A stretch of 64,000 nucleotides of DNA from Escherichia coli (GCF_041248615.1 NZ_CP158426.1); one strand, 5' to 3'. Shown: positions 2,790 through 55,412, counted from the stretch's first letter. The notes: generated from the sequence alone by a model not told the origin. Numbers and translations: made by a program.

Positions 2790-3155
2790 GTCGACAGGGA
2801 GTCAGACAACGAAGTGAACATCAGGATGATGACACTTCTGAAGGACACACCAGGATGGTGTTTCAGGGAAAGGCTTCTGGATGAAGCGAAGAGGATGACG
2901 CAGGACGCGTTAAAGGACACCTCCAGGATGGAGAATGAGAACCGGTCAGGATGATTCGGTGGGTCAGGAAGGCCAGGGACACTTCAGGATGAAGTATCAC
3001 ATCGGGGTGGTGTGAGCAGGAAGCAATAGTTCAGGATGAACGATTGGCCGCAAGGCCAGAGGAAAAGTTGTCAAGGATGAGCAGGGAGCAACAAAAGTAG
3101 CTGGAATGCTGCGAAACGAACCGGGAGCACTGTGAATACAGTGCTCCCTTTTTTT
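2790..3155 (+). ncRNA. csrB: CsrB small RNA (CsrA-sequestering), 5' end approximate
   Basis: About 365 nt with many repeated CAGGATG / AGGA(U)G GGA motifs; ends in hairpin 3123-3148 plus T7 run 3149-3155; located between syd and yqcC. Confidence 0.85.
3123..3155 (+). terminator. Intrinsic terminator of csrB
   Basis: 11-bp stem GGGAGCACTGT/ACAGTGCTCCC, loop GAAT, followed by TTTTTTT. Confidence 0.8.
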
Positions 3156-3200
3156 ATTCCTGCTATCCTTCGCGGCAGTTTTTCTTATTGAGGTTGCTTT

Positions 3201-38370: not shown

Positions 38371-39105
38371 ATGTCCAAACTCGATCTAAACGCCCTGAAC
38401 GAACTGCCGAAGGTAGATCGCATTCTGGCGCTGGCAGAAACTAACGCCGAACTGGAAAAACTGGATGCTGAAGGCCGCGTTGCCTGGGCGCTGGATAATC
38501 TGCCCGGTGAATATGTACTTTCTTCCAGTTTCGGCATTCAGGCGGCGGTGAGCCTGCATCTGGTGAATCAGATTCACCCGGATATCCCGGTGATCCTCAC
38601 CGATACGGGTTATCTGTTCCCGGAAACCTACCGCTTTATTGACGAGTTAACGGACAAACTCAAGCTCAACCTGAAAGTGTACCGCGCTACCGAAAGCGCC
38701 GCCTGGCAGGAAGCGCGCTACGGCAAACTGTGGGAGCAGGGCGTTGAAGGCATTGAAAAGTACAATGACATCAACAAAGTCGAACCGATGAACCGGGCGC
38801 TGAAAGAACTGAATGCGCAAACCTGGTTTGCTGGCCTGCGCCGTGAACAATCCGGCAGCCGCGCCAATTTACCGGTGCTGGCAATTCAGCGTGGCGTATT
38901 TAAAGTGCTGCCGATTATCGACTGGGATAACCGAACTATTTATCAGTACCTGCAAAAACATGGCCTGAAATATCACCCATTATGGGATGAAGGATATTTA
39001 TCGGTCGGTGATACCCATACAACCCGTAAATGGGAACCCGGCATGGCGGAAGAAGAAACGCGTTTCTTTGGCTTAAAAAGAGAATGTGGGTTACACGAAG
39101 GGTAA
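38371..39105 (+). CDS. cysH: Phosphoadenosine phosphosulfate (PAPS) reductase CysH
   Basis: ORF 38218-39105; start at ATG 38371 ([15 protein letters not shown]...) gives 244 aa. Confidence 0.9.
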
Positions 39106-39123
39106 ATATTGCCGGATAAATTA

Positions 39124-39161
39124 AACGCCTCTGTCAGAAATGATGGGGGCGTTTTTATTTT
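39124..39161 (+). terminator. Intrinsic terminator after cysH
   Basis: Hairpin AAACGCC..GGGGGCGTTT followed by TTTTATTTT. Confidence 0.6.
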
Positions 39162-39369
39162 GCGAGCAGCATTCCTGATTTTAAACGTGAACGCCGCTGG
39201 AAGAATTATCAGGTATAGAATGGCGTTGGGTGCTTGAGGCTGTCTGGCGTTAAGCATTCGCGAGGTTCCAGATGGACAAAAGCCCCAGGCGATATTTCTA
39301 TCAACCTGAGGCCAGCGTTCGAACCTAAGCAATTCGAATGTTAGTCTCTTCTTTGCAGGGAGGCAAGAC

Positions 39370-39522
39370 ATGCTGACAAAATATGCCCTTGTGGCAATCA
39401 TCGTACTGTGTTGTACAGTACTGGGATTCACGCTGATGGTAGGCGACTCGTTGTGTGAGTTGAGTATCAGAGAACGTGGTATGGAGTTTAAGGCAGTTCT
39501 CGCTTACGAATCGAAGAAGTAG
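39370..39522 (+). CDS. Hok/Gef-family small membrane toxin (50 aa), HokE-like; not in ORF track because shorter than 60 aa
   Basis: [50 protein letters not shown]: hydrophobic N-terminal helix, conserved Cys, Hok signature ..LCE..R...E..A.LAYE; mRNA-like 5' GGGUGCUUGAGGC and 3' GCACCC plus T-run. Confidence 0.7.
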
Positions 39523-39716
39523 CCACCACGCGGGGGTAAAACCCCGCGTATTGAATTGTGATGGTTTGGTCTCCTGCACCCTTTTTTAATTTATATTGTT
39601 TATGTGAATATTATGCCTATGTTTATTATTTATATATATTACTGATGAAAATTATTTGATTATTCATAATGTAAATATTTTATTGAACGATATATATCAC
39701 AGATAATTTTTAATAT

Positions 39717-42416
39717 ATGCGTAAATATCCTTTAAGTTTACTGAAGGATAAAAATATTGTGACTTTTTTTGATTTCTGGGGAAAAACCCGACGCGGCGAG
39801 AAAGACGGGGGCGACGACTATCACCTTCTTTGCTGGCATTCGCTGGATGTAGCCGCGATGGGCTATTTAATGGTTAAAAGCAATTGCTTCGGACTGGCTG
39901 ACTATTTTCGTCAATTAGAGATTTCTGACAAGGAACAGGCGGCTCAATTTTTCGCCTGGTTGTTGTGCTGGCACGATACTGGTAAATTTGCCCGCTCATT
40001 TCAGCAACTTTACCTGCACCCGAAACTCAGGGTTCCGGAAGGTGCTAGAAAAAATTACGAAAAAATCTCTCATTCAACGCTGGGCTACTGGTTGTGGCAT
40101 CATTATTTAAGTGAATGTCAGGAGTTACTTCCTTCCTCTTCACTCTCTCCCCGCAAACTTACACGTGTAATAGCGATGTGGATGCCCATAACTACCGGGC
40201 ATCATGGTCGCCCGCCTGACCGTATTGATGAACTGGATAATTTTCTGCCTGAAGACAAAGCTGCCGCGCGAGATTTTCTTCTTGAAATCAAACCACTGTT
40301 TCCGCTCATAGAGATCCCCGCATTCTGGGATGATGATGAGGGCATTGAACTTATAAAACACCTTTCCTGGTATATCTCTGCAACCGTCGTGCTCGCAGAC
40401 TGGACGGGTTCGTCAACGCGATTTTTTCCACGCGTCGCACACCCAATGGATATTAAAGGTTACTGGCAGAAAACTTTAGTTCAGGCTCAAAACGCCTTAA
40501 CCGTCTTTCCTCTAAAAGCAAAAGTCGCGCCTTTCACCGGAATTAATACGCTGTTTCCTTTTATTGAGAATCCGACACCGTTACAGCAAAAGGTGCTGGA
40601 TCTGGATATCAGCCAGCCAGGGCCACAGTTATTTATTCTGGAAGATGTGACTGGCGCAGGTAAAACGGAAGCGGCGCTTATCCTGGCGCACAGGTTGATG
40701 GCTGCGGGTAAAGCGCAGAGTTTGTTTTTTGGCCTGCCAACAATGGCAACGGCCAATGCCATGTACGATCGACTGGTCAAAACCTGGCTTGCTTTCTATT
40801 CGCCAGAGTCCCGCCCCAGCCTGGTGCTGGCACACAGTGCCCGAACATTAATGGACCGCTTTAATGAATCACTCTGGTCCGGTGATTTAGTCGGGTCAGA
40901 AGAACCGGATGAACAAACGTTCAGTCAGGGATGTGCGGCCTGGTTTGCCGACAGTAACAAGAAGGCGCTACTGGCTGAAATTGGCGTCGGCACGCTGGAT
41001 CAGGCGATGATGGCGGTGATGCCGTTCAAACATAATAATGTGCGGCTTCTGGGACTGAGTAACAAAATCCTGCTGGCTGATGAGATCCATGCCTGTGACG
41101 CTTACATGTCATGCATTCTTGAAGGGCTGATCGAGCGGCAGGCGCGTGGCGGAAACAGCGTCATTTTGCTTTCTGCCACGTTATCTCAACAGCAGTGCGA
41201 CAAACTCGTTGCTGCCTTTGCGCGTGGTACAGAGGGCCAGCAAGAAGCTCCGTTCCTGGAAAAGGATGATTACCCCTGGCTGACGCACGTTACGAAATCC
41301 GATGTGCATTCACACCGGGTAGCGACGCGCAAAGACGTTGAGCGTAGCGTGAGCGTGGGTTGGCTTCATAGCGAACAAGAATGTATTGCGCGTATCGAAT
41401 CGGCAGTAAGTCAGGGGAAATGCATCGCCTGGATCCGGAATTCTGTCGATGACGCTATTAAGGTTTATCGTCAGTTGCTTGCCCGCGGCGTCATTCCTGC
41501 TTCCAGCCTTTCTCTTTTTCATAGCCGCTTTGCTTTTAGCGATCGCCAGCGAATTGAAACGGAAACGCTGGCACGCTTCGGTAAAAGTTGTAGTTTACAG
41601 AGATCATCACAAGTCATTGTTTGTACACAAGTAATTGAACAAAGTGTGGATATTGACCTGGACGAAATGATCTCCGACCTGGCCCCTGTTGATTTGCTGA
41701 TCCAGCGAGCGGGGCGATTACAGCGGCATATCCGCGATATTAATGGTCAGTTAAAGCGTGACGGAAAAGACGAGCGTTCTCCTCCTGAATTGCTGATTCT
41801 GGCCCCCGTCTGGGACGACTCTCCGGGTGATGAATGGTTTGGCAGAGCCATGCGTAACAGTGCATATGTCTACCCCGATCATGGGCGAATCTGGCTGACG
41901 CAGCGTGTGCTGCGTCAGCAAGGCGCTATTCAGATGCCACACTCAGCCCGGCTTCTGATTGAATCAGTCTACGGTGAGGACGTGGTAATGGCGGAAGGGT
42001 TTGCCCGCAGCGAGCAGGAGCAAGTGGGCAAATATTACTGCGATCGCGCAATGGCTAAAAAGTTTGTCCTGAACTTCAAGCCTGGCTATGCCGCCAATAT
42101 CAACGATTACCTTCCGGAAAAGCTGTCGACACGTCTGGCGGAGGAGTCTGTTTCCCTGTGGCTGGCTACCTGTATTGCCAGTGTGGTGAAGCCTTATGCC
42201 AACGGTGCTCACGCATGGGAAATGAGCGTTGTCAGAGTGCGTCGAAGCTGGTGGAAAAAACATCGGGATGAGTTTTCTTTACTGGAAGGGGAAGCGTTCA
42301 GGCAGTGGTGCATTGAACAGCGGAAAGATCCGGAGATGGCAAACGTGATTTTAGTTACCGATGACGAAAGTTGCGGGTATTCGGCTATGGAAGGATTGAC
42401 TGGCAAGGTTGGTTGA
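39717..42416 (+). CDS. cas3: Type I-E Cas3 helicase-nuclease (HD plus DEAD/DEAH helicase), variant not of K-12 type
   Basis: 899-aa ORF with Walker A LEDVTGAGKTEA and DEIH-like motif; alternative GTG start at 39759 with AAGGA 10 nt upstream. Confidence 0.85.
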   Translation: MRKYPLSLLKDKNIVTFFDFWGKTRRGEKDGGDDYHLLCWHSLDVAAMGYLMVKSNCFGLADYFRQLEISDKEQAAQFFAWLLCWHDTGKFARSFQQLYLHPKLRVPEGARKNYEKISHSTLGYWLWHHYLSECQELLPSSSLSPRKLTRVIAMWMPITTGHHGRPPDRIDELDNFLPEDKAAARDFLLEIKPLFPLIEIPAFWDDDEGIELIKHLSWYISATVVLADWTGSSTRFFPRVAHPMDIKGYWQKTLVQAQNALTVFPLKAKVAPFTGINTLFPFIENPTPLQQKVLDLDISQPGPQLFILEDVTGAGKTEAALILAHRLMAAGKAQSLFFGLPTMATANAMYDRLVKTWLAFYSPESRPSLVLAHSARTLMDRFNESLWSGDLVGSEEPDEQTFSQGCAAWFADSNKKALLAEIGVGTLDQAMMAVMPFKHNNVRLLGLSNKILLADEIHACDAYMSCILEGLIERQARGGNSVILLSATLSQQQCDKLVAAFARGTEGQQEAPFLEKDDYPWLTHVTKSDVHSHRVATRKDVERSVSVGWLHSEQECIARIESAVSQGKCIAWIRNSVDDAIKVYRQLLARGVIPASSLSLFHSRFAFSDRQRIETETLARFGKSCSLQRSSQVIVCTQVIEQSVDIDLDEMISDLAPVDLLIQRAGRLQRHIRDINGQLKRDGKDERSPPELLILAPVWDDSPGDEWFGRAMRNSAYVYPDHGRIWLTQRVLRQQGAIQMPHSARLLIESVYGEDVVMAEGFARSEQEQVGKYYCDRAMAKKFVLNFKPGYAANINDYLPEKLSTRLAEESVSLWLATCIASVVKPYANGAHAWEMSVVRVRRSWWKKHRDEFSLLEGEAFRQWCIEQRKDPEMANVILVTDDESCGYSAMEGLTGKVG

Positions 42417-42513
42417 GATGCCTGCGACAGGGCTCTCTGAATAGTTGATACACCGAAAAGGATGGAATGATGGACAACCGACCTAGGATGGTCTTTTTTA
42501 CGAGAGGATGCGT

Positions 42514-44076
42514 ATGAACTCGTTTTCACTTCTGACAACCCCGTGGTTGCCCGTTCGTTATAAAGACGGAACGACAGGCAAACTGGCGCCTGTCGATCTG
42601 GCGGATGAAAATGTTGTCGATATTGCTGCGCCACGGGCAGATCTCCAGGGAGCGGCATGGCAGTTTTTGCTGGGGCTACTACAAACCAGCTTTGCGCCAA
42701 AAGATCATCGTCGTTGGGATGATATCTGGGAAGACGGACTGGAATCTGAAAAGCTACGGGAAGCATTGCTGTCCTTAGAACACGCTTTCCAGTTTGGGCC
42801 AGATTCCCCTTCATTTATGCAGGATTTCGAGGCGCTCACAGGAGATAAAGTTCAGGTCGCTTCGCTACTGCCTGAGATTCCCGGCGCTCAAACAACGAAG
42901 TTTAATAAAGACCACTTTATCAAGCGTGGTGTAACGGAATACCTGTGCCCACATTGTTCTGCGTTAGCTCTGTTCTCCCTACAGTTAAATGCGCCGTCAG
43001 GTGGTAAAGGCTACCGCACCGGTTTACGCGGCGGTGGGCCGATGACCACTCTGATTGAATTACAGGAATATCAGGGCAATCAACAAACGCCCTTGTGGCG
43101 CAAACTGTGGCTCAATGTGATGCCGCAGGACGAAGCCGACTTACCGCTACCCAAAAAATTTGACGATCTGGTTTTCCCCTGGCTTGGCCCGACGCGTACC
43201 AGCGAACTGGCCGGTGCGGTGGTAACCGATGATCAGGTTAATAAACTCCAGGCGTACTGGGGAATGCCGCGGCGTATTCGTATTGATTTTAATACCACGA
43301 CAGTCGGCAACTGCGATATTTGCGGCGAGCAGAACGACGCGCTCCTGAGCCTGATGACGACCAAAAATTACGGCGCGAATTATGCCATGTGGCAGCATCC
43401 CTTAACGCCTTACCGTGTACCCCTTAAAGAGGGCGGCGAGTTTTACTCGGTCAAACCACAACCAGGCGGTTTAATCTGGCGCGACTGGTTAGGCCTTATC
43501 GAAACGGGTAAATCAGAAAACAATACGGAACTTCCCGCGCTGGTGGTGAAACTCTTTAATGCCAGCAGTCTCAAGCAGGCAAAAGTGGGCCTGTGGGGAT
43601 TTGGTTATGATTTTGACAACATGAAAGCGCGCTGTTGGTACGAACACCATTTTCCGCTGCTGCTCGATAAAAAAGAAGGCCAGATACCGAAGCTGCGGCT
43701 GGCTGCGCAAACGGCTTCACGGATTCTGAGTCTGTTACGGAGTGCATTGAAAGAAGCGTGGTTCTCCGATCCAAAAGGTGCACGGGGTGATTTCAGTTTT
43801 GTGGATATCGACTTCTGGAACAAAACTCAGCATCGCTTCCTGAGGTTAGTGCGCCACATTGAAGAAGGTCAGGATGCGGATGAATTACTCAGCAAATGGC
43901 AAAAGGAAATTTGGTTATTCGCGCGTCAGGATTTTGACGAGCGTGTCTTCACCAATCCATATGAGCCCGTTGATTTGAAACGCGTCATGACCGCGCGCAA
44001 GAAATATTTTACAACATCGGCGGAGAAGCAAAATGCTAAAGCCGCCAGGGAGAAAAAGCAGGAGGCTGCTGAATGA
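42514..44076 (+). CDS. casA: Cascade large subunit Cse1 (CasA)
   Basis: ORF 42508-44076; second ATG 42514 has better spacing from GAGAGG; about 520 aa; position after cas3. Confidence 0.8.
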   Translation: MNSFSLLTTPWLPVRYKDGTTGKLAPVDLADENVVDIAAPRADLQGAAWQFLLGLLQTSFAPKDHRRWDDIWEDGLESEKLREALLSLEHAFQFGPDSPSFMQDFEALTGDKVQVASLLPEIPGAQTTKFNKDHFIKRGVTEYLCPHCSALALFSLQLNAPSGGKGYRTGLRGGGPMTTLIELQEYQGNQQTPLWRKLWLNVMPQDEADLPLPKKFDDLVFPWLGPTRTSELAGAVVTDDQVNKLQAYWGMPRRIRIDFNTTTVGNCDICGEQNDALLSLMTTKNYGANYAMWQHPLTPYRVPLKEGGEFYSVKPQPGGLIWRDWLGLIETGKSENNTELPALVVKLFNASSLKQAKVGLWGFGYDFDNMKARCWYEHHFPLLLDKKEGQIPKLRLAAQTASRILSLLRSALKEAWFSDPKGARGDFSFVDIDFWNKTQHRFLRLVRHIEEGQDADELLSKWQKEIWLFARQDFDERVFTNPYEPVDLKRVMTARKKYFTTSAEKQNAKAAREKKQEAAE

Positions 44077-44609
44077 GTATTGTAAAAGAGGAGCACAAAG
44101 CCACGCTGCGTAAATGGCACGAAGAGTTGCAGGAAAAACGCGGCAATCGTGCCAGTCTGCGGCGTAGCACAACGGTTAATGATGTTTGTCTGTCAGAAGG
44201 GTTTCGTTCTCTGCTGATGCAGACCCACACTTTGTGGAAAATTGAAGCACAAGAGTGGCGTTTTACCGCACTGGCGCTGGTCGCCGCAGTTAGCGCCAAT
44301 GTTAAAGCTATTGATGAACGGCAGCCTTTTGCCGCGCAGCTGGCGGCGGTAATGTCGGAGGGGCGTTTTACTCGCCTGTCGGCAGTAAAAACGCCTGATG
44401 ATTTACTGCGTCAGTTACGTCGCGCGGTCAAATTATTAAATGGTTCCGTCAATCTTATCTCTTTGGCAGAAGATATTTTCCGCTGGTGCCAGGAGAGCGA
44501 CGACCTGCTCAATCATCACCGCCGCCAGCAGCGGCCAACAGAATTTATCCGTATCCGCTGGGCGCTGGAATATTACCAGGCTGGCGACGCCGATAACGAA
44601 CAAAATTAA
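44073..44609 (+). CDS. casB: Cascade small subunit Cse2 (CasB)
   Basis: 178-aa ORF overlapping casA stop by 4 bp. Confidence 0.8.
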   Translation: MSIVKEEHKATLRKWHEELQEKRGNRASLRRSTTVNDVCLSEGFRSLLMQTHTLWKIEAQEWRFTALALVAAVSANVKAIDERQPFAAQLAAVMSEGRFTRLSAVKTPDDLLRQLRRAVKLLNGSVNLISLAEDIFRWCQESDDLLNHHRRQQRPTEFIRIRWALEYYQAGDADNEQN

Positions 44610-44623
44610 TAAAGGACTATCTC

Positions 44624-45679
44624 ATGACGACATTTATTCAGCTTCATTTGTTAACCGCTTACCCTGCTGCCAACCTTAACCGTGATGACACCGGTGCGCC
44701 AAAAACTGTGGTACTGGGTGGAGCAACGCGTCTGCGCGTTTCCTCACAAAGTCTGAAACGTGCGTGGCGCACTTCTGCACTTTTTGAACAGGCACTGGCG
44801 GGCCATATTGGTATTCGCAGTGGGCGTATTGCGCGTGAGGCGGCAACTATCCTGATTGAGAAAGGCATCGAAGAGAAAAAAGCCATCGAATGGGCGGCAA
44901 AAATTGCGGATTATCTTGGGAAAGCTAAAAACGACAAAAAACCAAAAGATCCGCTCACTAACGCCGAAACTGAACAGCTAGTCCATATCAGCCCGGCAGA
45001 ATTTGACGCCGTAAAAGCGCTGGCCCATCAACTGGCCGAAGAAAAGCGCGCGCCAAAAGAGGAAGATCTCGCTTTGTTACGTAAAGATCGCATGGCGGTA
45101 GATATCGCTATGTTTGGTCGTATGCTGGCGAATAAACCCGAATTTAATGTTGAAGCCGCCTGCCAGGTCGCGCATGCATTTGGTGTCAGTGAAACGATTG
45201 TCGAAGATGATTTTTTCACCGCCGTTGATGATTTGCGCCAGGCTTCTGAAGATGCCGGTGCCGGGCATCTTGGTGAAACCGGATTCGGTTCTGCGCTGTT
45301 CTACACCTATATCTGCATCGATAAAGATCTGCTGGTCGAAAACCTCGGCGGTGACGAAGCGTTAGCTAATCAGACCTTGCGCGCCTTTACGGAAGCCGCA
45401 CTTAAAGTCTCCCCAACCGGCAAACAGAACAGCTTTGCCAGCCGTGCCTACGCCTCCTGGGCGCTGGCAGAAAAAGGCACTGAACAACCACGCTCTCTGG
45501 CGGCGGCTTTCTATGAACCCATTAATGGCACCCGGCAGTTAGATGTGGCGGTGCAGCGTATTACAACGCTTCGCGAAAATATGAATACGGTCTATGAACA
45601 GAAGACCGAATGCGCAAGCTTTGACGTGATGAACAAACAGGGAAGCATGAAGGACGTGCTGGACTTTATCTGCGCGTAA
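44624..45679 (+). CDS. casC: Cascade backbone subunit Cas7e (CasC)
   Basis: 351-aa ORF MTTFIQLHLLTAYPAANLNRDDTGAPK... Confidence 0.85.
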   Translation: MTTFIQLHLLTAYPAANLNRDDTGAPKTVVLGGATRLRVSSQSLKRAWRTSALFEQALAGHIGIRSGRIAREAATILIEKGIEEKKAIEWAAKIADYLGKAKNDKKPKDPLTNAETEQLVHISPAEFDAVKALAHQLAEEKRAPKEEDLALLRKDRMAVDIAMFGRMLANKPEFNVEAACQVAHAFGVSETIVEDDFFTAVDDLRQASEDAGAGHLGETGFGSALFYTYICIDKDLLVENLGGDEALANQTLRAFTEAALKVSPTGKQNSFASRAYASWALAEKGTEQPRSLAAAFYEPINGTRQLDVAVQRITTLRENMNTVYEQKTECASFDVMNKQGSMKDVLDFICA

Positions 45680-45689
45680 GGGGCGGCTA

Positions 45690-46436
45690 ATGAGCCAATA
45701 TTTGATTTTTCAGCTTCATGGGCCAATGGCATCCTGGGGCGTCGATGCCCCCGGCGAAGTGCGTCATACCCATGAACTGCCTTCGCGCTCAGCATTGCTG
45801 GGGCTGCTGGCTGCCGGGGTAGGGATTCGGCGTGATGATACCGAACGATTAAACGCGTTTAACCGCCACTATTCACTGGTGGTTTGCGCCAGCCGTAACC
45901 CGCGCTGGGCACGGGATTATCACACGGTCCAGATGCCAAAAGAGGTGCGTAAAGCGCGTTATTTCAGCCGTCGCGAAGAGTTGAGCGCCCCTGATCTTCT
46001 GAGCGCGATTATCTCCCGGCGCGACTACTACACCGATGCCTGGTGGATGGTGGCGGTGGCAACAACCCCCGATGCGCCTTACAGGCTTGAACAGTTGCAG
46101 GACGGTTTACGTCATCCGGTTTTTCCGCTTTATCTGGGGCGAAAAAGTCATCCGCTGGCGTTACCACTTGCGCCGTTACTGCTCGAAGGCAACGCGTCTG
46201 ATGTCTTACGTAACGCATACCAACAGTATCAGGATAGTTTCCGCGAACTGAAAGTCTCACTCCCGAAACTTCAGGATGAATGCTGGTGGGAAGGGGAACA
46301 CGACGGCCTGGTCGCGAGCAAAATATTACGTCGCCGGGATGTTCCTTTAAATCGTCAGCAGTGGCTGTTTGGGGAACGCACCATCAATCAGGGGCCGTGG
46401 CTCAGCAAGGAGGAACCATGTACCTCTCAAGAATAA
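45690..46436 (+). CDS. casD: Cascade subunit Cas5e (CasD)
   Basis: 248-aa ORF; operon position. Confidence 0.8.
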   Translation: MSQYLIFQLHGPMASWGVDAPGEVRHTHELPSRSALLGLLAAGVGIRRDDTERLNAFNRHYSLVVCASRNPRWARDYHTVQMPKEVRKARYFSRREELSAPDLLSAIISRRDYYTDAWWMVAVATTPDAPYRLEQLQDGLRHPVFPLYLGRKSHPLALPLAPLLLEGNASDVLRNAYQQYQDSFRELKVSLPKLQDECWWEGEHDGLVASKILRRRDVPLNRQQWLFGERTINQGPWLSKEEPCTSQE

Positions 46437-47064
46437 CCTTACATACCGGCCAGCTTTCGCCTGCGCAGTTGCTGCATCTGGTGGATCGCGGTGAATATGT
46501 AATGCATCAGTGGCTGTGGGATCTTTTTCCTGGCGGCAAAGAAAGGCAATTTCTTTATCGTCGGGAAGAACTCCAGGGGGCGTTTCGCTTTTTTGTCCTG
46601 TCGCAGGAACGCCCGGCGGAAAGTGATATTTTCACCATCGAATGCCGACCATTTGCGCCAGAGTTGCGTACCGGACAATCCCTTTGTTTCAACCTGCGGG
46701 CGAATCCAACAATTTGTAAAGCGGGCAAACGCCACGACTTGCTGATGGAGGCGAAACGGCAGGTGAGGGGGCAGGTGGAAGGAAGTGATGTCTGGTTGCA
46801 TCAACAACAGGCGGCGCTGGACTGGCTGGCAGCGCAGGGGGAAAGAAGCGGTTTTACACTACTGGATACCTCGGTCGATGCCTACCGACAACAGCAACTG
46901 CGGCGGGAAAACTCCCGGCAACTGATCCAGTTCAGTAGCGTGGATTATACGGGGATGCTTACGGTCACCGATCCTGGGTTATTTCTGCAACGTCTGAGCC
47001 AGGGGTATGGCAAAAGCCGCGCGTTCGGCTGTGGTCTGATGCTGATCAAACCCGGAGCAGAGGC

Positions 47065-47068
<4 letters not shown>
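46418..47068 (+). CDS. casE: CRISPR repeat endoribonuclease Cas6e (CasE)
   Basis: ORF 46280-47068; probable start MYLSRITLHTGQ at 46418 (216 aa), overlapping casD end; C-terminal G-rich loop GYGKSRAFGCG. Confidence 0.8.
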
Positions 47069-48278
<1,210 letters not shown>

Positions 48279-48374
48279 GTTATCTGTTCTTTAAAAATAA
48301 GGAAATGTTTTAATTTAGTTGGTAGATTGTTGATGCGGAATAAATTTTTTTAAAAACAGTTATGTATGCTTAGT

Positions 48375-49074
48375 GTGTTCCCCGCGTCAGCGGGGATAAA
48401 CCGGACTCAGTTTTTCCCTGCTGACCCTCCGAAGGGTGTTCCCCGCGTCAGCGGGGATAAACCGCCATGCCGCGCCAGCTCTGCGAAACAGCCCGCGTGT
48501 TCCCCGCGTCAGCGGGGATAAACCGATCCAAAGATAGTCGCCCCGATTGCCAAATTGGTGTTCCCCGCGTCAGCGGGGATAAACCGACGGTATTGTTCAG
48601 ATCCTGGCTTGCCAACAGGTGTTCCCCGCGTCAGCGGGGATAAACCGGCGGCACTAACGTGATAATCACGATCAATTATGTGTTCCCCGCGTCAGCGGGG
48701 ATAAACCGTGACGGTCCGAAAAAAGTTGGCTGAAGAAATTGTGTTCCCCGCGTCAGCGGGGATAAACCGGTTATTGCGTTTTCCTCACCTGCGGCGAGTC
48801 CGTGTTCCCCGCGTCAGCGGGGATAAACCGCATTCCGTGCAGCGGTCTGAATAATTGCCGCGGTGTTCCCCGCGTCAGCGGGGATAAATCGAGTAACGAC
48901 GAAAAAATACAGGCACGGGCCAGGTGTTCCCCGCGTCAGCGGGGATAAACCGATCCCCGCAGGTATCGCGCAGCTATCGATCGAGTGTTCCCCGCGTCAG
49001 CGGGGATAAACCGGACGCACTGGATGCGATGATGGACATCACTTGGAGTTCCCCGCCCCTGCGGTAGAACTCCC
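48375..49074 (+). CRISPR. Type I-E CRISPR array (CRISPR-I) adjacent to cas2: 12 repeats (last degenerate), 11 spacers of 32 bp
   Basis: 29-bp repeat GTGTTCCCCGCGTCAGCGGGGATAAACCG at 61-bp period; repeat 9 ends ..AAATCG; terminal repeat GAGTTCCCCGCCCCTGCGGTAGAACTCCC; leader 48279-48374 with GTTGGTAGATTGT at 48319-48331. Confidence 0.95.
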
Positions 49075-49094
49075 AGCTCTCATTTTCAAACCCA

Positions 49095-50132
49095 TCAAGA
49101 CGCCTTCGCCAGCTCCTTCACCAGCGGTAGCATTATCCGCATAACATCACGGCAGCGACGTTCTATTCTTCCAGGAAGTGCCTTATCAATATGTTGTTGA
49201 TTATCCAGTCTTACGTCATGCCAGCTATTTCCCGCAGGGAATGCAGCTGTTTTTGCGCGTTGCTGATAACCATCCTTATTCCCAAGATTCCAATTTGTTG
49301 CTTCTACCGAAAGTACGGCAATACCGGCTTTGTCGAAAACTTCGGCATCATTACAACAGCCAGTACCCTTCGGATAATTTTTATTCAAACCCGGATTGGT
49401 CGTTGCGGCAATTCCATGACTACGCGCAATTGCCAGCGCCCTGTCGCGCGTTAATTTCCTTACTGCTTCAGGGGTTTTTACACCGCTGTTGAAATACAAT
49501 TTATCGCCAACAATTAAGTTATCGAGATTAATCACCAGCAGCGTATTTTTCTTTTCGGTGTCACTCATCCGCTTGAGTAAATTCTCAGCGCCTAATTTCC
49601 CTTCCTCTTCGCCGCTGGTCGCCACAAATCGAATACCATACTCGGTAGGCGTATTTTTCAGGCGTTCTGCCAGTTCCAGCATGACACCTAAACCTGCAGC
49701 GTTATCATCCATTCCTTGTAACGTCAGTCCGCCGAGATTGGCATCGGCGTCAGCATCGCTCAGCGGGGCGTAAGTATCCAGATGCGCCATAATGATGATC
49801 TGCTGCGGCGCTTTGCCTTCATGAGCGGCAATCACCGTACTTCCCGTCACGTTATGCCAGCTCTTGCGATTATCGCGGGCGGTATAAATATACCGACTAT
49901 TAAATGTCCGAATATCACTGCGATAACCCATTTGCTGAAACTGTTGGCGAATATAATCGGCAGATAACATTTCTGCAGGAGTTCCGGTCATGCGTCCCGG
50001 AAAGAAAGTAGCAATATGTCGTGCCTGAGTATTAGCAAAATCGCCAGGTTTAGCTGACGAGGCGTGTACGGGGAGAATAAAGCATACGCCGAGCGCCAGG
50101 GCAGCGGTACGGTGGCGCAATGCGGAAAACAT
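49095..50132 (-). CDS. iap: Alkaline phosphatase isozyme conversion aminopeptidase Iap
   Basis: 345-aa ORF with signal peptide, M28-peptidase-like. Confidence 0.8.
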   Translation of the reverse strand: MFSALRHRTAALALGVCFILPVHASSAKPGDFANTQARHIATFFPGRMTGTPAEMLSADYIRQQFQQMGYRSDIRTFNSRYIYTARDNRKSWHNVTGSTVIAAHEGKAPQQIIIMAHLDTYAPLSDADADANLGGLTLQGMDDNAAGLGVMLELAERLKNTPTEYGIRFVATSGEEEGKLGAENLLKRMSDTEKKNTLLVINLDNLIVGDKLYFNSGVKTPEAVRKLTRDRALAIARSHGIAATTNPGLNKNYPKGTGCCNDAEVFDKAGIAVLSVEATNWNLGNKDGYQQRAKTAAFPAGNSWHDVRLDNQQHIDKALPGRIERRCRDVMRIMLPLVKELAKAS

Positions 50133-50383
50133 AGTGAGTCCTTAAATACCATGCAAATTTTTTTACCGCCATAGTATGAAACTGCCGATGCGCTAAAACA
50201 ATTTCAAATCTTCCTAAACGCCCGAAATCCGGTGCCTTAAGCACTTTTTGATATTAGCTTTGCCAAATCGTTATTCCGTTAAGGAACTACTCATTCTAAT
50301 TGGTAATTTCATTCGTTCTCTTACGCTCCCTATAGTCGAAACATCTGATGGCAAGAAAATAGCGGTATTGCAAAGGAACGGTT

Positions 50384-51292
50384 ATGGATCAAAAACGACT
50401 TACTCACCTGCGGCAACTGGAGGCGGAAAGCATCCACATTATTCGCGAGGTGGCGGCAGAATTCTCAAATCCGGTGATGCTCTACTCTATCGGTAAAGAT
50501 TCCAGCGTCATGCTGCATCTGGCGCGCAAGGCGTTTTATCCAGGTACGCTGCCTTTCCCGTTGCTGCATGTCGATACCGGCTGGAAATTCCGCGAGATGT
50601 ATGAGTTCCGCGATCGTACGGCTAAAGCCTACGGCTGCGAGCTGCTGGTGCATAAAAACCCGGAAGGCGTGGCGATGGGGATTAATCCATTCGTTCATGG
50701 CAGCGCGAAACATACCGATATTATGAAAACTGAAGGCCTGAAACAGGCGCTGAATAAATACGGTTTTGATGCCGCCTTCGGTGGTGCACGCCGCGACGAA
50801 GAGAAATCCCGTGCTAAAGAGCGAATCTACTCTTTCCGTGACCGCTTCCATCGCTGGGATCCGAAAAATCAGCGCCCGGAGCTGTGGCACAACTACAACG
50901 GGCAAATTAACAAAGGCGAAAGCATTCGCGTCTTCCCGCTCTCTAACTGGACCGAGCAGGATATCTGGCAATACATCTGGCTGGAAAATATCGACATTGT
51001 GCCGCTGTATCTCGCTGCGGAACGACCGGTTCTGGAACGCGACGGTATGTTGATGATGATTGATGACAACCGTATCGACCTGCAACCGGGAGAAGTGATT
51101 AAAAAACGGATGGTGCGTTTCCGTACGCTGGGCTGCTGGCCGCTGACCGGTGCGGTGGAGTCAAATGCACAAACACTGCCGGAAATCATCGAAGAGATGC
51201 TGGTTTCCACCACCAGTGAACGTCAGGGTCGCGTGATTGACCGCGACCAGGCGGGATCCATGGAGTTGAAAAAACGTCAGGGGTATTTTTAA
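50384..51292 (+). CDS. cysD: Sulfate adenylyltransferase subunit 2 CysD
   Basis: 302-aa ORF, PAPS-reductase-like fold motif (SIGKDS). Confidence 0.9.
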
Positions 51293-51293
51293 G

Positions 51294-52721
51294 ATGAACA
51301 CCGCACTTGCACAACAAATCGCCAATGAAGGCGGCGTCGAAGCCTGGATGATTGCGCAACAACATAAAAGCCTGCTGCGTTTTCTGACCTGTGGTAGCGT
51401 CGATGACGGCAAAAGTACCCTGATTGGTCGTCTGCTGCACGATACCCGCCAAATCTACGAAGATCAGCTCTCATCGCTGCATAACGACAGTAAGCGTCAC
51501 GGCACCCAGGGCGAAAAGCTGGATCTGGCTCTGCTGGTGGACGGCCTGCAAGCTGAGCGCGAACAGGGCATCACCATTGACGTGGCTTACCGTTATTTCT
51601 CTACCGAGAAGCGTAAATTTATTATCGCCGATACCCCAGGGCACGAGCAGTACACTCGCAATATGGCGACTGGCGCATCGACATGTGAACTGGCGATCTT
51701 ACTGATCGATGCCCGTAAAGGCGTGCTCGATCAAACCCGTCGTCACAGTTTTATCTCCACACTGTTGGGGATCAAACATCTGGTCGTGGCGATCAACAAA
51801 ATGGATCTGGTGGGTTACAGTGAAGAGACGTTCACCCGTATTCGCGAAGATTATCTGACGTTTGCCGGGCAGCTGCCGGGTAATCTGGATATCCGCTTTG
51901 TGCCGCTCTCTGCACTGGAAGGCGACAACGTGGCTTCGCAAAGTGAAAGTATGCCGTGGTACAGCGGTCCGACACTGCTCGAAGTGCTGGAAACCGTGGA
52001 GATCCAGCGAGTGGTGGATGCCCAGCCAATGCGCTTCCCGGTGCAGTACGTTAATCGCCCGAATCTCGATTTTCGTGGCTACGCCGGAACGCTGGCATCC
52101 GGTCGAGTGGAAGTCGGGCAACGTGTCAAAGTGCTGCCCTCTGGTGTGGAATCAAACGTCGCGCGGATCGTGACTTTTGATGGCGATCGCGAAGAAGCCT
52201 TTGCCGGAGAAGCGATCACCCTAGTGCTGACGGATGAGATCGACATCAGCCGTGGCGATCTGCTGCTGGCGGCAGACGAAGCGTTACCGGCTGTGCAGAG
52301 CGCGTCGGTGGATGTGGTATGGATGGCGGAACAGCCGCTTTCCCCAGGCCAGAGTTACGACATCAAAATTGCCGGTAAGAAGACACGTGCTCGTGTTGAT
52401 GGCATTCGTTATCAGGTTGATATTAATAACCTTACCCAACGCGAAGTTGAAAACCTGCCGCTGAACGGCATCGGGCTGGTGGATCTCACTTTTGACGAGC
52501 CACTGGTGTTAGATCGTTATCAGCAAAATCCGGTTACCGGTGGGCTGATTTTTATCGATCGCCTGAGCAATGTGACCGTGGGTGCCGGTATGGTGCACGA
52601 GCCAGTTAGCCTGGCAACTGCTGCGCCATCTGAATTCAGTGCATTCGAACTGGAATTGAATGCCCTGGTTCGTCGCCACTTTCCGCACTGGGGCGCGCGC
52701 GATTTGTTGGGGGATAAATAA
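51294..52721 (+). CDS. cysN: Sulfate adenylyltransferase subunit 1 CysN (GTPase)
   Basis: 475-aa ORF with G-domain motifs ([19 protein letters not shown]). Confidence 0.9.
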
Positions 52722-53326
52722 TGGCGCTGCATGACGAAAACGTCGTCTGGCATAGCCATCCGGTCACTGTGCAACAACGCGAGCTACACCACGGTCATCG
52801 TGGTGTAGTGCTGTGGTTTACCGGCCTCTCCGGGTCCGGTAAATCAACGGTCGCCGGGGCGCTGGAGGAGGCGTTACATAAACTCGGCGTCAGTACGTAT
52901 CTGCTGGATGGCGACAATGTTCGCCACGGATTATGCAGCGATCTCGGTTTTAGCGATGCCGATCGTAAAGAGAATATCCGTCGCGTCGGTGAAGTGGCGA
53001 ATTTGATGGTTGAAGCCGGACTGGTGGTGCTGACCGCATTCATCTCGCCACACCGCGCCGAACGCCAGATGGTTCGTGAACGCGTAGGAGAAGGGCGCTT
53101 TATCGAAGTGTTTGTCGATACGCCGCTGGCGATTTGCGAAGCCCGCGATCCAAAAGGCTTATATAAGAAAGCGCGTGCCGGTGAACTGCGCAACTTTACG
53201 GGAATAGATTCCGTTTACGAAGCGCCTGAATCGGCAGAAATTCATCTCAATGGTGAACAATTAGTAACAAATTTGGTACAGCAATTATTAGATCTGTTGA
53301 GACAGAACGATATTATCAGATCCTGA
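52721..53326 (+). CDS. cysC: Adenylylsulfate (APS) kinase CysC
   Basis: 201-aa ORF with P-loop GLSGSGKST; overlaps cysN stop. Confidence 0.9.
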
Positions 53327-53375
53327 GACACCACCGGGTTTCCATGCCCGGTTCGTCAAAGTAACAGGATCAAAT

Positions 53376-53699
53376 ATGCGTAATAGCCATAACATTACAC
53401 TAACAAATAACGACAGCCTTACTGAGGATGAAGAAACCACATGGTCACTGCCTGGTGCTGTGGTCGGTTTTATCTCCTGGTTATTTGCGCTGGCGATGCC
53501 GATGTTGATTTATGGCTCTAACACGCTGTTTTTCTTTATCTACACCTGGCCTTTCTTTCTGGCACTGATGCCTGTCGCGGTAGTGGTGGGGATTGCGCTG
53601 CATTCATTGATGGACGGAAAGCTACGCTACAGTATTGTTTTCACCCTGGTGACAGTAGGCATTATGTTTGGCGCACTGTTTATGTGGCTACTGGGCTAA
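53376..53699 (+). CDS. ygbE: Small inner-membrane protein YgbE (DUF3561)
   Basis: 107-aa ORF with predicted transmembrane segments. Confidence 0.7.
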   Translation: MRNSHNITLTNNDSLTEDEETTWSLPGAVVGFISWLFALAMPMLIYGSNTLFFFIYTWPFFLALMPVAVVVGIALHSLMDGKLRYSIVFTLVTVGIMFGALFMWLLG

Positions 53700-53892
53700 T
53701 TTGTACTTTCTTGTCTCCTCTGTTCATAATTCAAACCGTAACTAATAATGAGATTATGTTCTGCACGCCCTGGGTATACGTAACAATGGACAAATGTGGT
53801 ACATTTGCCCGCGTTGTCGCGGTATCCCCAACAGAGGATGTAGAGTCGTCTTCGGATGCATGGGATGATGATGCCGTTTTTCAGGGGGCAGG

Positions 53893-54204
53893 ATGGGTAA
53901 ACTAACGCTGCTGTTGCTGGCTATTCTGGTCTGGCTACAGTATTCGCTGTGGTTCGGTAAGAACGGTATACATGACTATACCCGCGTCAATGATGATGTG
54001 GCGGCACAGCAAGCTACAAACGCGAAACTTAAAGCGCGAAACGATCAACTTTTTGCCGAAATTGACGATCTCAATGGCGGCCAGGAGGCGCTCGAAGAGC
54101 GTGCGCGTAATGAACTCAGCATGACCAGGCCGGGCGAAACTTTTTATCGTCTGGTGCCTGACGCGTCGAAGCGCGCACAGTCTGCGGGGCAAAACAATCG
54201 ATAA
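53893..54204 (+). CDS. ftsB: Cell division protein FtsB
   Basis: 103-aa [28 protein letters not shown]... with coiled-coil region. Confidence 0.85.
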
Positions 54205-54222
54205 ATCAGCCCGGGAATTAAC

Positions 54223-54933
54223 ATGGCAACCACTCATTTGGATGTTTGCGCCGTGGTTCCGGCGGCCGGATTTGGCCGTCGAATGCAAACGGAATGTCCT
54301 AAGCAATATCTCTCAATCGGTAATCAAACCATTCTTGAACACTCGGTGCATGCGCTGCTGGCGCATCCCCGGGTGAAACGTGTCGTCATTGCCATAAGTC
54401 CTGGCGATAGCCGTTTTGCACAACTTCCTCTGGCGAATCATCCGCAAATCACCGTTGTAGATGGCGGTGATGAGCGTGCCGATTCGGTGCTGGCAGGTCT
54501 GAAAGCCGCTGGCGACGCGCAGTGGGTATTGGTGCATGACGCCGCTCGTCCTTGTCTGCATCAGGATGACCTCGCGCGATTGTTGGCGTTGAGCGAAACC
54601 AGCCGCACGGGGGGGATCCTCGCCGCACCAGTGCGCGATACGATGAAACGTGCCGAACCGGGCAAAAATGCCATTGCTCATACCGTTGATCGCAACGGCT
54701 TATGGCACGCGCTGACGCCGCAATTTTTCCCTCGCGAGCTGTTACATGACTGCCTGACGCGCGCTCTAAATGAAGGCGCTACCATTACCGACGAAGCCTC
54801 GGCGCTGGAATATTGCGGATTCCATCCGCAGTTGGTCGAAGGCCGCGCGGATAACATTAAAGTCACGCGACCGGAAGATTTGGCACTGGCCGAGTTTTAC
54901 CTCACCCGAACCATCCATCAGGAGAATACATAA
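54223..54933 (+). CDS. ispD: 2-C-methyl-D-erythritol 4-phosphate cytidylyltransferase IspD
   Basis: 236-aa ORF ([10 protein letters not shown] motif). Confidence 0.9.
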
Positions 54934-55412
54934 TGCGAATTGGACACGGTTTTGACGTACACGCCTTTGGCGGTGAAGGCCCAATTATCATTGGTGGCGT
55001 ACGCATTCCTTACGAAAAAGGATTGCTGGCGCATTCTGATGGCGACGTGGCGCTCCATGCGTTGACCGATGCATTGCTTGGCGCGGCGGCGCTGGGGGAT
55101 ATCGGCAAACTGTTCCCGGATACCGATCCGGCATTTAAAGGTGCCGATAGCCGCGAGCTGCTACGCGAAGCCTGGCGTCGTATTCAGGCGAAGGGTTATA
55201 CCCTTGGCAACGTCGATGTCACTATCATCGCTCAGGCACCGAAGATGTTGCCGCACATTCCACAAATGCGCGTGTTTATTGCCGAAGATCTCGGCTGCCA
55301 TATGGATGATGTTAACGTGAAAGCCACTACTACGGAAAAACTTGGATTTACCGGACGTGGGGAAGGGATTGCCTGTGAAGCGGTGGCGCTACTCATTAAG
55401 GCAACAAAATGA
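54933..55412 (+). CDS. ispF: 2-C-methyl-D-erythritol 2,4-cyclodiphosphate synthase IspF
   Basis: 159-aa [17 protein letters not shown]... Confidence 0.9.

Follow-up and report, generated by a model that had tools for sequence, protein, structure and literature searches.

The segment between cysH and cas3 in the Escherichia coli window analyzed here (the whole stretch of 64,000 nucleotides, with positions counted from its first base) carries, with a probability that we put at about 85%, a chromosomal hokX/sokX type I toxin-antitoxin locus of the Hok/Sok family in its uninterrupted form. The module lies between the cysH stop at 39105 and the cas3 start at 39717. It is not a discovery, because RefSeq annotation and publications on it already exist: hokX/sokX has been annotated, named and mapped in the literature, and the copy present in the window is genuine and sequence-intact, but ordinary.

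The toxin gene hokX (HokG) is a plus-strand ORF at 39370-39522 encoding a membrane peptide of 50 amino acids. A preliminary description of the window, made from the sequence alone, had reported an intact ORF of 50 codons at this position, and it was found there with a translation exactly as quoted, for which an N-terminal transmembrane helix and a conserved Cys, both typical of the family, had been noted. The peptide is identical to WP_000956458.1, and the Pfam search that had been proposed placed it in the Hok/Gef family (HOK_GEF, PF01848; E = 6.3e-10, residues 5-46, full 42-position model). Against the NCBIfam models, the peptide reached 53 bits for HokA (curated equivalog cut-off 89) and 39.5 bits for the Hok subfamily (curated cut-off 73). 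As both scores are below the curated cut-offs, HokX is a member of the Hok family and not an equivalog of HokA. The resemblance to HokE that had been suggested corresponds to 78% identity with the K-12 HokE peptide. A Shine-Dalgarno sequence read from the window, GGGAGG (39358-39363, plus strand), precedes the hok ATG by 6 nt; the full-length fold pairs part of it with a U-rich segment upstream (39347-39354).

Between the alleles of the window, O157:H7 and N32, 8 changes in the ORF are synonymous and 1 is non-synonymous. Also, one dominant peptide allele is common to distant lineages, and the minor variants are rare single substitutions. The peptide gave no match in phages, and its plasmid matches at 95% identity or more were confined to records of 4.8-4.9 Mb, which are chromosomes filed as plasmids. 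An origin in a mobile element is not supported.

The same locus is found throughout the species. The chromosome of strain 135 carries a 100% identical copy, in which the PGAP CDS "Hok/Gef family protein" (WP_000956458.1) is annotated at exactly the same ORF, and the O157:H7 annotation holds the same protein accession. The exact-sequence look-up of the peptide returned at least 1000 contigs, with source names that include the UniProt entry "Putative protein HokG, HOKG_ECO57". A megablast search with 39100-39720 gave matches in 5425 of 5426 complete E. coli genomes. The ORF together with the 3' end (39370-39590) was found in 4220 of these 5426 genomes (about three quarters), with a coverage of at least 80% in 3417, and the hokX ORF is absent from 1206. 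The case that the preliminary description had named against itself, an ORF interrupted in the actual genome or created by a sequencing error, was not seen, given the identity with strain 135 and the presence of the ORF in thousands of genomes.

Several publications have dealt with this region. The gene located between cysH and iap was named hokX; it was first identified in E. coli B and is intact in the AIEC strain NRG857c (PMC7232551). Among 237 uropathogenic strains, 90% possess hok and sokX adjoining cysH, and the remainder possess sokX only, as K-12 does (PMC12736100). "The hok sok system" has also served as a landmark of the CRISPR-I locus, where only the strains with the cas-E2 (K-12) gene variant lack it (Almendros et al. 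2014, PMC3903273). Literature searches on the names "hokG" and "mokE" returned, respectively, only "HOK_GEF" strings and unrelated papers, and only irrelevant matches. In view of the RefSeq and UniProt entries and of the papers on the toxin-antitoxin repertoires of E. coli and on how the CRISPR region cysH-cas3-iap has evolved, the locus carries little weight as a discovery.

The sequences flanking the ORF resemble those of a hok mRNA, as had been proposed; the Pfam and Rfam matches, the fold-back and the leader homology with K-12 sokX all agree with this reading. The individual flank features of the preliminary description are all present, with four coordinates one base off. The -10-like TATAGAAT is located at 39214-39221 instead of 39213-39220, the mRNA 5' end GGGTGCTTGAGGC begins at 39228 instead of 39227, and the 3' segment GGTCTCCTGCACCC occupies 39568-39581 instead of 39567-39580, followed directly by T6 at 39582-39587. 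The 3' hairpin, placed at 39529-39548, represents the inner 7 bp of an 8-bp, G+C-rich hairpin with the loop GUAAAA found by folding at 39528-39549 (plus strand).

The leader itself was recognized by the Rfam model RF01794 ("sok"), which matched in full length on the plus strand at 39228-39385 with 111.7 bits (gathering score 59). The E-value was 2e-26 in a 1-kb search and 1.4e-24 in the whole 64-kb window, across which CsrB was the only other Rfam family above threshold. This match has the orientation of hok and thus describes the leader of hok, the real Sok gene being encoded on the other strand. A full-length hokX mRNA of 360 nt is predicted on the plus strand (39228-39587), with its 5' end placed at position 1 of RF01794 and its 3' end after the fbi-like element and a run of six U (39582-39587) read from the sequence. 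The minimum free energy (MFE) of this RNA was -128.9 kcal/mol (z = -3.6), and none of 100 shuffled sequences was as stable.

The fold-back that characterizes this RNA is formed by its first 14 nt, the tac-like 5' element GGGUGCUUGAGGCU (39228-39241, plus strand), with the fbi-like 3' element GGUCUCCUGCACCC (39568-39581, plus strand). This pairing appeared in both the MFE and the centroid structures, where 11 pairs had probabilities of 0.93-0.998 by thermodynamic prediction; the earlier suggestion that the 3' segment pairs with the 5' end is therefore borne out in the predicted mRNA, at 0.93 or above. Natural variation in the fbi-like element keeps the pairing: the O157:H7 change C39577T turns a G-C pair into G.U, and the N32 change T39570C turns a G.U pair into G-C. 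In the local fold of the last 41-71 nt, we found no hairpin before the U-run (-3.1 kcal/mol, no better than shuffles). An ordinary intrinsic terminator was thus dropped, and the helix ahead of the U-run would be the long-range tac/fbi stem. When the last 38 nt were removed in silico, the 5' end refolded into a local hairpin (mRNA nt 1-32) and the target of the Sok 5' tail moved into a hairpin loop (mRNA nt 97-105). This predicted refolding after 3' truncation agrees with the logic described for R1.

The candidate hokX promoter was read from the sequence. Its -10 element TATAGAAT (39214-39221, plus strand) places TAGAAT 6 nt before the predicted +1, which we infer by homology to the 5' end of the Rfam model and to the R1-like hok mRNA. 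Five alleles keep this element, as TATAGAAT or TTTAGAAT, despite differences in the sequence upstream of it. A consensus promoter and terminator scan of 39050-39750 (threshold 9/12) called neither the hok promoter nor the Sok promoter; its only calls were the terminator of cysH (39123-39154) and a promoter-like site inside a gene. The hok promoter was missed because it has no good -35, and the candidate SokX promoter, with 8 of 12 consensus matches, falls under the threshold. The scan neither supports nor contradicts the two assignments.

The antisense RNA gene was located by mapping the K-12 ncRNA sokX (b4701) onto the window, where it occupies 59 nt of the minus strand (39272-39330, with the 5' end at 39330). 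The two sequences are identical at 57 of 59 bases, and both differences fall in the 5' tail. The RNA folds into a single-stranded 5' tail and a stem-loop, followed by CUUUUGU. Its candidate promoter (39338-39366, minus strand) is composed of a -35 TTGCCT (39361-39366), a 17-nt spacer and a -10 TAACAT (39338-39343), with 7 nt to the +1; these elements are invariant in five alleles including K-12. As at other hok loci, the -35 is the complement of the hok Shine-Dalgarno region. SokX has been detected in K-12 by RNA-seq under all conditions tested (bioRxiv 10.1101/2024.06.20.599902). We do not claim a U-turn (YUNR) motif for the loop targeted by Sok: CUAA is found there in the window, but the K-12/N32 and O157 alleles are without the motif.

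By homology with R1, the locus would operate as follows. A weak constitutive promoter would give an mRNA of roughly 360 nt that is inert as made, with tac at its 5' end bound to fbi at its 3' end, and with the hok Shine-Dalgarno and start codon enclosed in a local hairpin. Slow trimming of the 3' end would free the 5' end and allow a refolding that exposes the translation start region and the Sok target. The short and unstable SokX (39330 to 39272, minus strand) would then pair with the leader just upstream of a short leader ORF, leading to a translation block and to decay of the mRNA. Upon loss of SokX, Hok would be made and would damage the inner membrane.

Published data bear on expression and toxicity. 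In O157:H7 EDL933, which encodes the same HokX peptide, the Rfam-defined leader listed as "sok_15/sokX" collected 93 RNA-seq reads and 28 footprint reads (RCV 0.63), counts that are low (PMC5331693); these leader reads are only suggestive of expression. Of 45 Hok homologues tested by induction, 42 proved toxic, HokE among them, and the same study summarizes earlier work in which the chromosomal hokA, hokB and hokC gave no post-segregational killing (bioRxiv 10.1101/2025.08.07.668861).

The uninterrupted locus has several natural knock-outs. In MG1655, only the ncRNA sokX is annotated between cysH and cas3, and this annotation agrees with the alignment and with what the preliminary description had said of K-12, since the leader and sokX are kept there. 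From the end of cysH to the G of the hok ATG (39372), K-12 and the window are essentially identical, with a few scattered substitutions; past 39372 the sequences are unrelated, the hok ORF and the 3' end having been replaced together with the cas3 upstream region. In strain 2017-02-2CC, IS421 (IS186 family) is inserted inside the hairpin at 39528-39549 and cuts the fbi segment off from the mRNA; the same kind of junction sequence is found at K-12 hokC and hokE. In PSJ-42, IS1 has removed the 5' part, and IS insertions are found in E. coli B and some other strains. Such repeated loss or disruption (K-12 deletion, IS421 insertion, IS1 deletion) indicates that the locus is dispensable. As a well-characterized example, the locus is of modest value: it offers an uninterrupted chromosomal hok locus beside these natural knock-outs (deletion in K-12, IS186-family insertion in the 3' hairpin, IS1 deletion).

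The question of mok deserves closer consideration. It had been stated that no mok-like frame overlaps hok, and this is correct for a long overlapping frame with a start codon; it overlooked a 12-codon leader ORF on the plus strand (39338-39376), which is a candidate short equivalent of mok. This ORF starts with the ATG at 39338, crosses the hok Shine-Dalgarno and ends four bases into hok, its stop overlapping the hok start (AUGCUGA). All four intact alleles contain it. Where O157:H7 has a synonymous change of the hok codon CTG to CTA, the leader-ORF stop TGA becomes TAA, so that a stop is kept. Because the ATG of this ORF is complementary to the Sok -10 (TAACAT), its conservation is explained without translation and does not constitute independent evidence. 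There is no clear Shine-Dalgarno before this ATG. An in-frame N-terminal extension of Hok was also considered as mok and was rejected, as the 20 open codons upstream in the hok frame contain no ATG, GTG or TTG. At the canonical mok start site, every E. coli hokX allele seen has TCG, and the Klebsiella relative and hokB have ATG.

Saturation mutagenesis of R1 has established that translation of hok needs mok to be translated up to the hok Shine-Dalgarno, that translation beyond the hok start is unnecessary, and that mok start-codon mutants abolish Hok translation (PMC9841398). By analogy, the 12-codon leader ORF would bring translation as far as R1 needs it, up to the hok Shine-Dalgarno. This ORF is a candidate that would likely act as the coupling device for Hok translation. 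The hokE/hokX branch, which is without a canonical mok, could show how short a leader ORF gating Hok can be.

These same observations can be read in another way: with the loss of the mok start, hokX would have become a translationally silent relic from which Hok is essentially never made, while a harmless hok mRNA and SokX persist. Such silence has been proposed in general for chromosomal hok loci. It would fit with the TCG at the mok position in all E. coli hokX alleles, where Klebsiella has an in-frame ATG after GAGG and hokB also has an ATG, with the effect of the R1 start-codon mutants (PMC9841398) and with the absence of killing by chromosomal hokA, hokB and hokC. The frequent deletions and IS insertions, and the absence of the ORF from 1206 of 5426 genomes, point in the same direction. 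Nevertheless, a silent gene agrees poorly with the excess of synonymous changes (8 versus 1) and with a single dominant peptide allele across distant lineages. The strong Shine-Dalgarno (GGGAGG, 6-nt spacing), the fbi variants that preserve the pairs with tac, and the 12-codon ORF reaching as far as R1 requires also speak against it, as do the ribosome footprints, low in number, that were reported for the EDL933 leader. We therefore consider the silent relic a possible but rather unlikely alternative to a functional hokX/sokX locus.

It had also been noted that the locus adjoins the AT-rich region upstream of cas3 and that its transcription could influence this gene. The first point is correct: hokX is followed by an AT-rich spacer (39588-39716, no strand assigned; 14.7% G+C), which we treat as context and not as part of the module, and which extends up to the cas3 ATG at 39717. 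The two genes are co-oriented, with hokX 129 bp upstream. The cas3 gene is of the "E1" variant, because the published primer cas3E1-R (PMC3903273) matches at 39798. That hokX influences cas3 is purely speculative. With termination depending on a long-range helix, read-through is conceivable, and transcripts escaping this fold-back terminator could add to the activity of the cas3 promoter or interfere with it, so that hokX would matter mainly for its neighbor. The orientation, the short distance and the lack of a local hairpin before the U-run are compatible with this idea, as is the presence of hok sok upstream of cas3 in every cas-E1 strain and its absence from the cas-E2 (K-12) arrangement (PMC3903273). 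However, the tac/fbi helix with the U6 behind it already resembles a terminator, and the mRNA of R1-like hok has the same kind of end. Moreover, hokX is equally present where there are no cas genes at all: in strain N32, it is intact between cysH and iap, an arrangement also reported for AIEC NRG857c, and the module is thus independent of cas3. More generally, hok loci are no closer to defense systems than expected by chance (12% versus 9.4%; bioRxiv 10.1101/2025.08.07.668861). A role of hokX for its neighbor therefore seems improbable to us.

A study of cas3 regulation (PMC7019758) gave no transcription-start information usable for this cas3. Tandem Repeats Finder found nothing in 39000-55000, as expected for a CRISPR array with unique spacers. 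One may go further and imagine that mok has been replaced by the minimal 12-codon ORF and that, with no terminator hairpin present, polymerase escaping the fold-back reads into an H-NS-silenced, AT-rich region upstream of cas3. We regard this combined proposal as more doubtful still; if true, it would tie the expression of the CRISPR nuclease in E1-type E. coli to how a toxin mRNA is folded.

The persistence of sokX in K-12, where it is expressed despite the deletion of hokX, raises the idea that the functional unit is SokX acting in trans, for example on the mRNA of hokE, the gene of the closest paralogue, and that hokX is incidental. This is very unlikely, as 12 of the 36 positions aligned within the target of the Sok 5' tail and stem are different between the leaders of hokX and hokE, and the allelic variation of hokX is concentrated in the same recognition segment. 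This target difference and this allelic variation would rather argue for a cis-specific pairing of SokX. Finally, a chance ORF or a sequencing artefact without biological meaning, for which only the small size of the ORF (below usual cut-offs) could be put forward, can practically be dismissed, as it is ruled out by Pfam and Rfam matches far beyond chance and by identical or near-identical sequences in thousands of independent complete genomes.

Compared with the other E. coli hokX/sokX copies (HOKG_ECO57, WP_000956458.1), the locus of the window has the same peptide, the same position downstream of cysH, and the same leader and sokX. There is no difference of substance; the present copy is uninterrupted and lies upstream of an E1-type cas3. 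The closest paralogue of hokX is hokE/sokE, known from K-12 and O157:H7. It has the same leader architecture; likewise, its 5' end GGGUGC pairs with GCACC in a 3' segment, its Sok -10 contains an ATG, and its 3' hairpin is a target of IS186. The two loci differ in several respects. The upstream ATG of hokE is in frame with hok and gives a 12-codon N-terminal extension, because the spacer between the Shine-Dalgarno and the ATG is 4 nt longer, whereas the ATG at the same position in hokX begins an ORF of its own, 12 codons long, with its stop on the hok start. Also, 12 of 36 positions are not shared between the Sok target regions, and hokE occupies a different chromosomal site, near ybdK.

With the hok/sok (parB) system of plasmid R1, hokX shares the Hok/Gef toxin, the leader RNA family, the tac-fbi fold-back between the 5' and 3' ends, and an antisense Sok whose promoter overlaps the hok Shine-Dalgarno region. 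As in R1-like plasmid hok, the mRNA of hokX would end just after the fbi element and a U-rich run; in the R1-like case, UUUAU comes directly after an fbi whose last base is nt 391. The hok mRNA of R1 is 398 nt long. In the R1-like locus, fbi and UUUAU end near nt 396, whereas about 360 nt are predicted for the hokX mRNA. R1 possesses a 70-codon mok, whose start is required for the translation of hok, and hokX is without that start. Unlike R1 hok, hokX is a chromosomal gene, for which no match was found among phages or true plasmids. The same leader and fold-back design is found in hokB/mokB/sokB of K-12 and in a hok relative of Klebsiella pneumoniae, which adjoins mutS and encodes an 86% identical peptide. 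The mok ATG site of hokB and Klebsiella (GAGG-N7) aligns with 39308-39320 of hokX; hokB has an out-of-frame ATG there and Klebsiella an in-frame one, whereas hokX has TCG.

The differences among the hokX alleles that we compared cluster in the bases corresponding to the 5' tail of the antisense RNA SokX and its target (39325-39329 in the window, and the equivalent bases of the comparison loci L009, L010 and L002 from other genomes). When the window was set against these three loci, the variants CCTAAGC, CCCAAAC and CGT-AGC were found in this tail/target segment, and the remainder of the hokX leader was almost invariant across the compared alleles. Such clustered variation could reflect that the sequence used for recognition has diversified.

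In nature, hokX has also been disrupted independently in two cases. In the first (L011 2675-3900), an IS421 element, of the IS186 family, is inserted inside the hokX 3' hairpin. In the second (L012 1748-2574), an IS1B has removed the promoter, the leader and the first half of the ORF. In O157:H7 (L013 401-1115, Z1723), hokE is duplicated in tandem, the annotation having two hokE CDSs some 500 bp from each other; hokE is likewise tandemly duplicated in NRG857c (PMC7232551).

Upstream of hokX, the intrinsic terminator of cysH lies at 39121-39163 (+), with a stem at 39123-39154 followed by a T-run. The ctRNA_p42d and Spot 42 Rfam matches in this region were both sub-threshold, and were rejected as genes since they are look-alikes of this terminator stem and T-run. 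On the other strand, a 152-aa ORF with a GTG start (38973-39431, -) runs antisense across the 3' end of cysH and the leader of hok. PGAP has no gene at this position in the identical locus of strain 135, and in O157 it annotates a frameshifted 'hypothetical protein' at the corresponding position on the strand opposite hokE. This antisense ORF is probably spurious. Downstream of hokX (39717-49064), the type I-E cas operon is complete and of the 'E1' variant, with an 899-aa cas3 at 39717-42416. After it comes a CRISPR array (48372-49064) in which 12 repeats recur every 61 bp, the last one degenerate; iap lies at 49095-50132 (-). Elsewhere in the window, the CsrB small RNA gene is full-length (2799-3158, +; Rfam RF00018, 382.9 bits).

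The Tyr46 codon of hokX, TAC (39505-39507, +), is followed by G39508 and thus forms a UACG motif, which the predicted fold places within a 9-nt hairpin loop, CUUACGAAU (39503-39511). A-to-I editing by TadA is reported to recode this Tyr to Cys at position 46 of hokC, hokD and hokE (bioRxiv 10.1101/2025.08.07.668861). Cys29 is already present in HokX, so that editing of A39506 could give rise to a Cys29-Cys46 pair.

Among relatives, a peptide 86% identical to HokX is encoded at a Klebsiella pneumoniae hok locus (L014 1330-1740, CP125156.1) which adjoins mutS, not cysH. This 5.37-Mb entry is classed as a plasmid, as are three E. coli entries of 4.8-4.9 Mb in PLSDB; all four are evidently chromosomes. 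At the canonical mok position of the Klebsiella locus, an ATG stands in frame and is served by a GAGG SD. The Hok of the IncFII plasmid pMTY1886 matched at 100% our R1 Hok query; there, the mok-position ATG lies 57 nt before the hok ATG (L008 344-403) and is thus in frame. By the R1 numbering of PMC9841398, with the mok ATG at 116-118 and the hok ATG at 174-176, the distance would be 58 nt, hence out of frame. In K-12, mokC and hokC end at one common stop, being in frame, whereas the mokB stop differs from that of hokB. Whether mok and hok share a frame is evidently not a conserved property.
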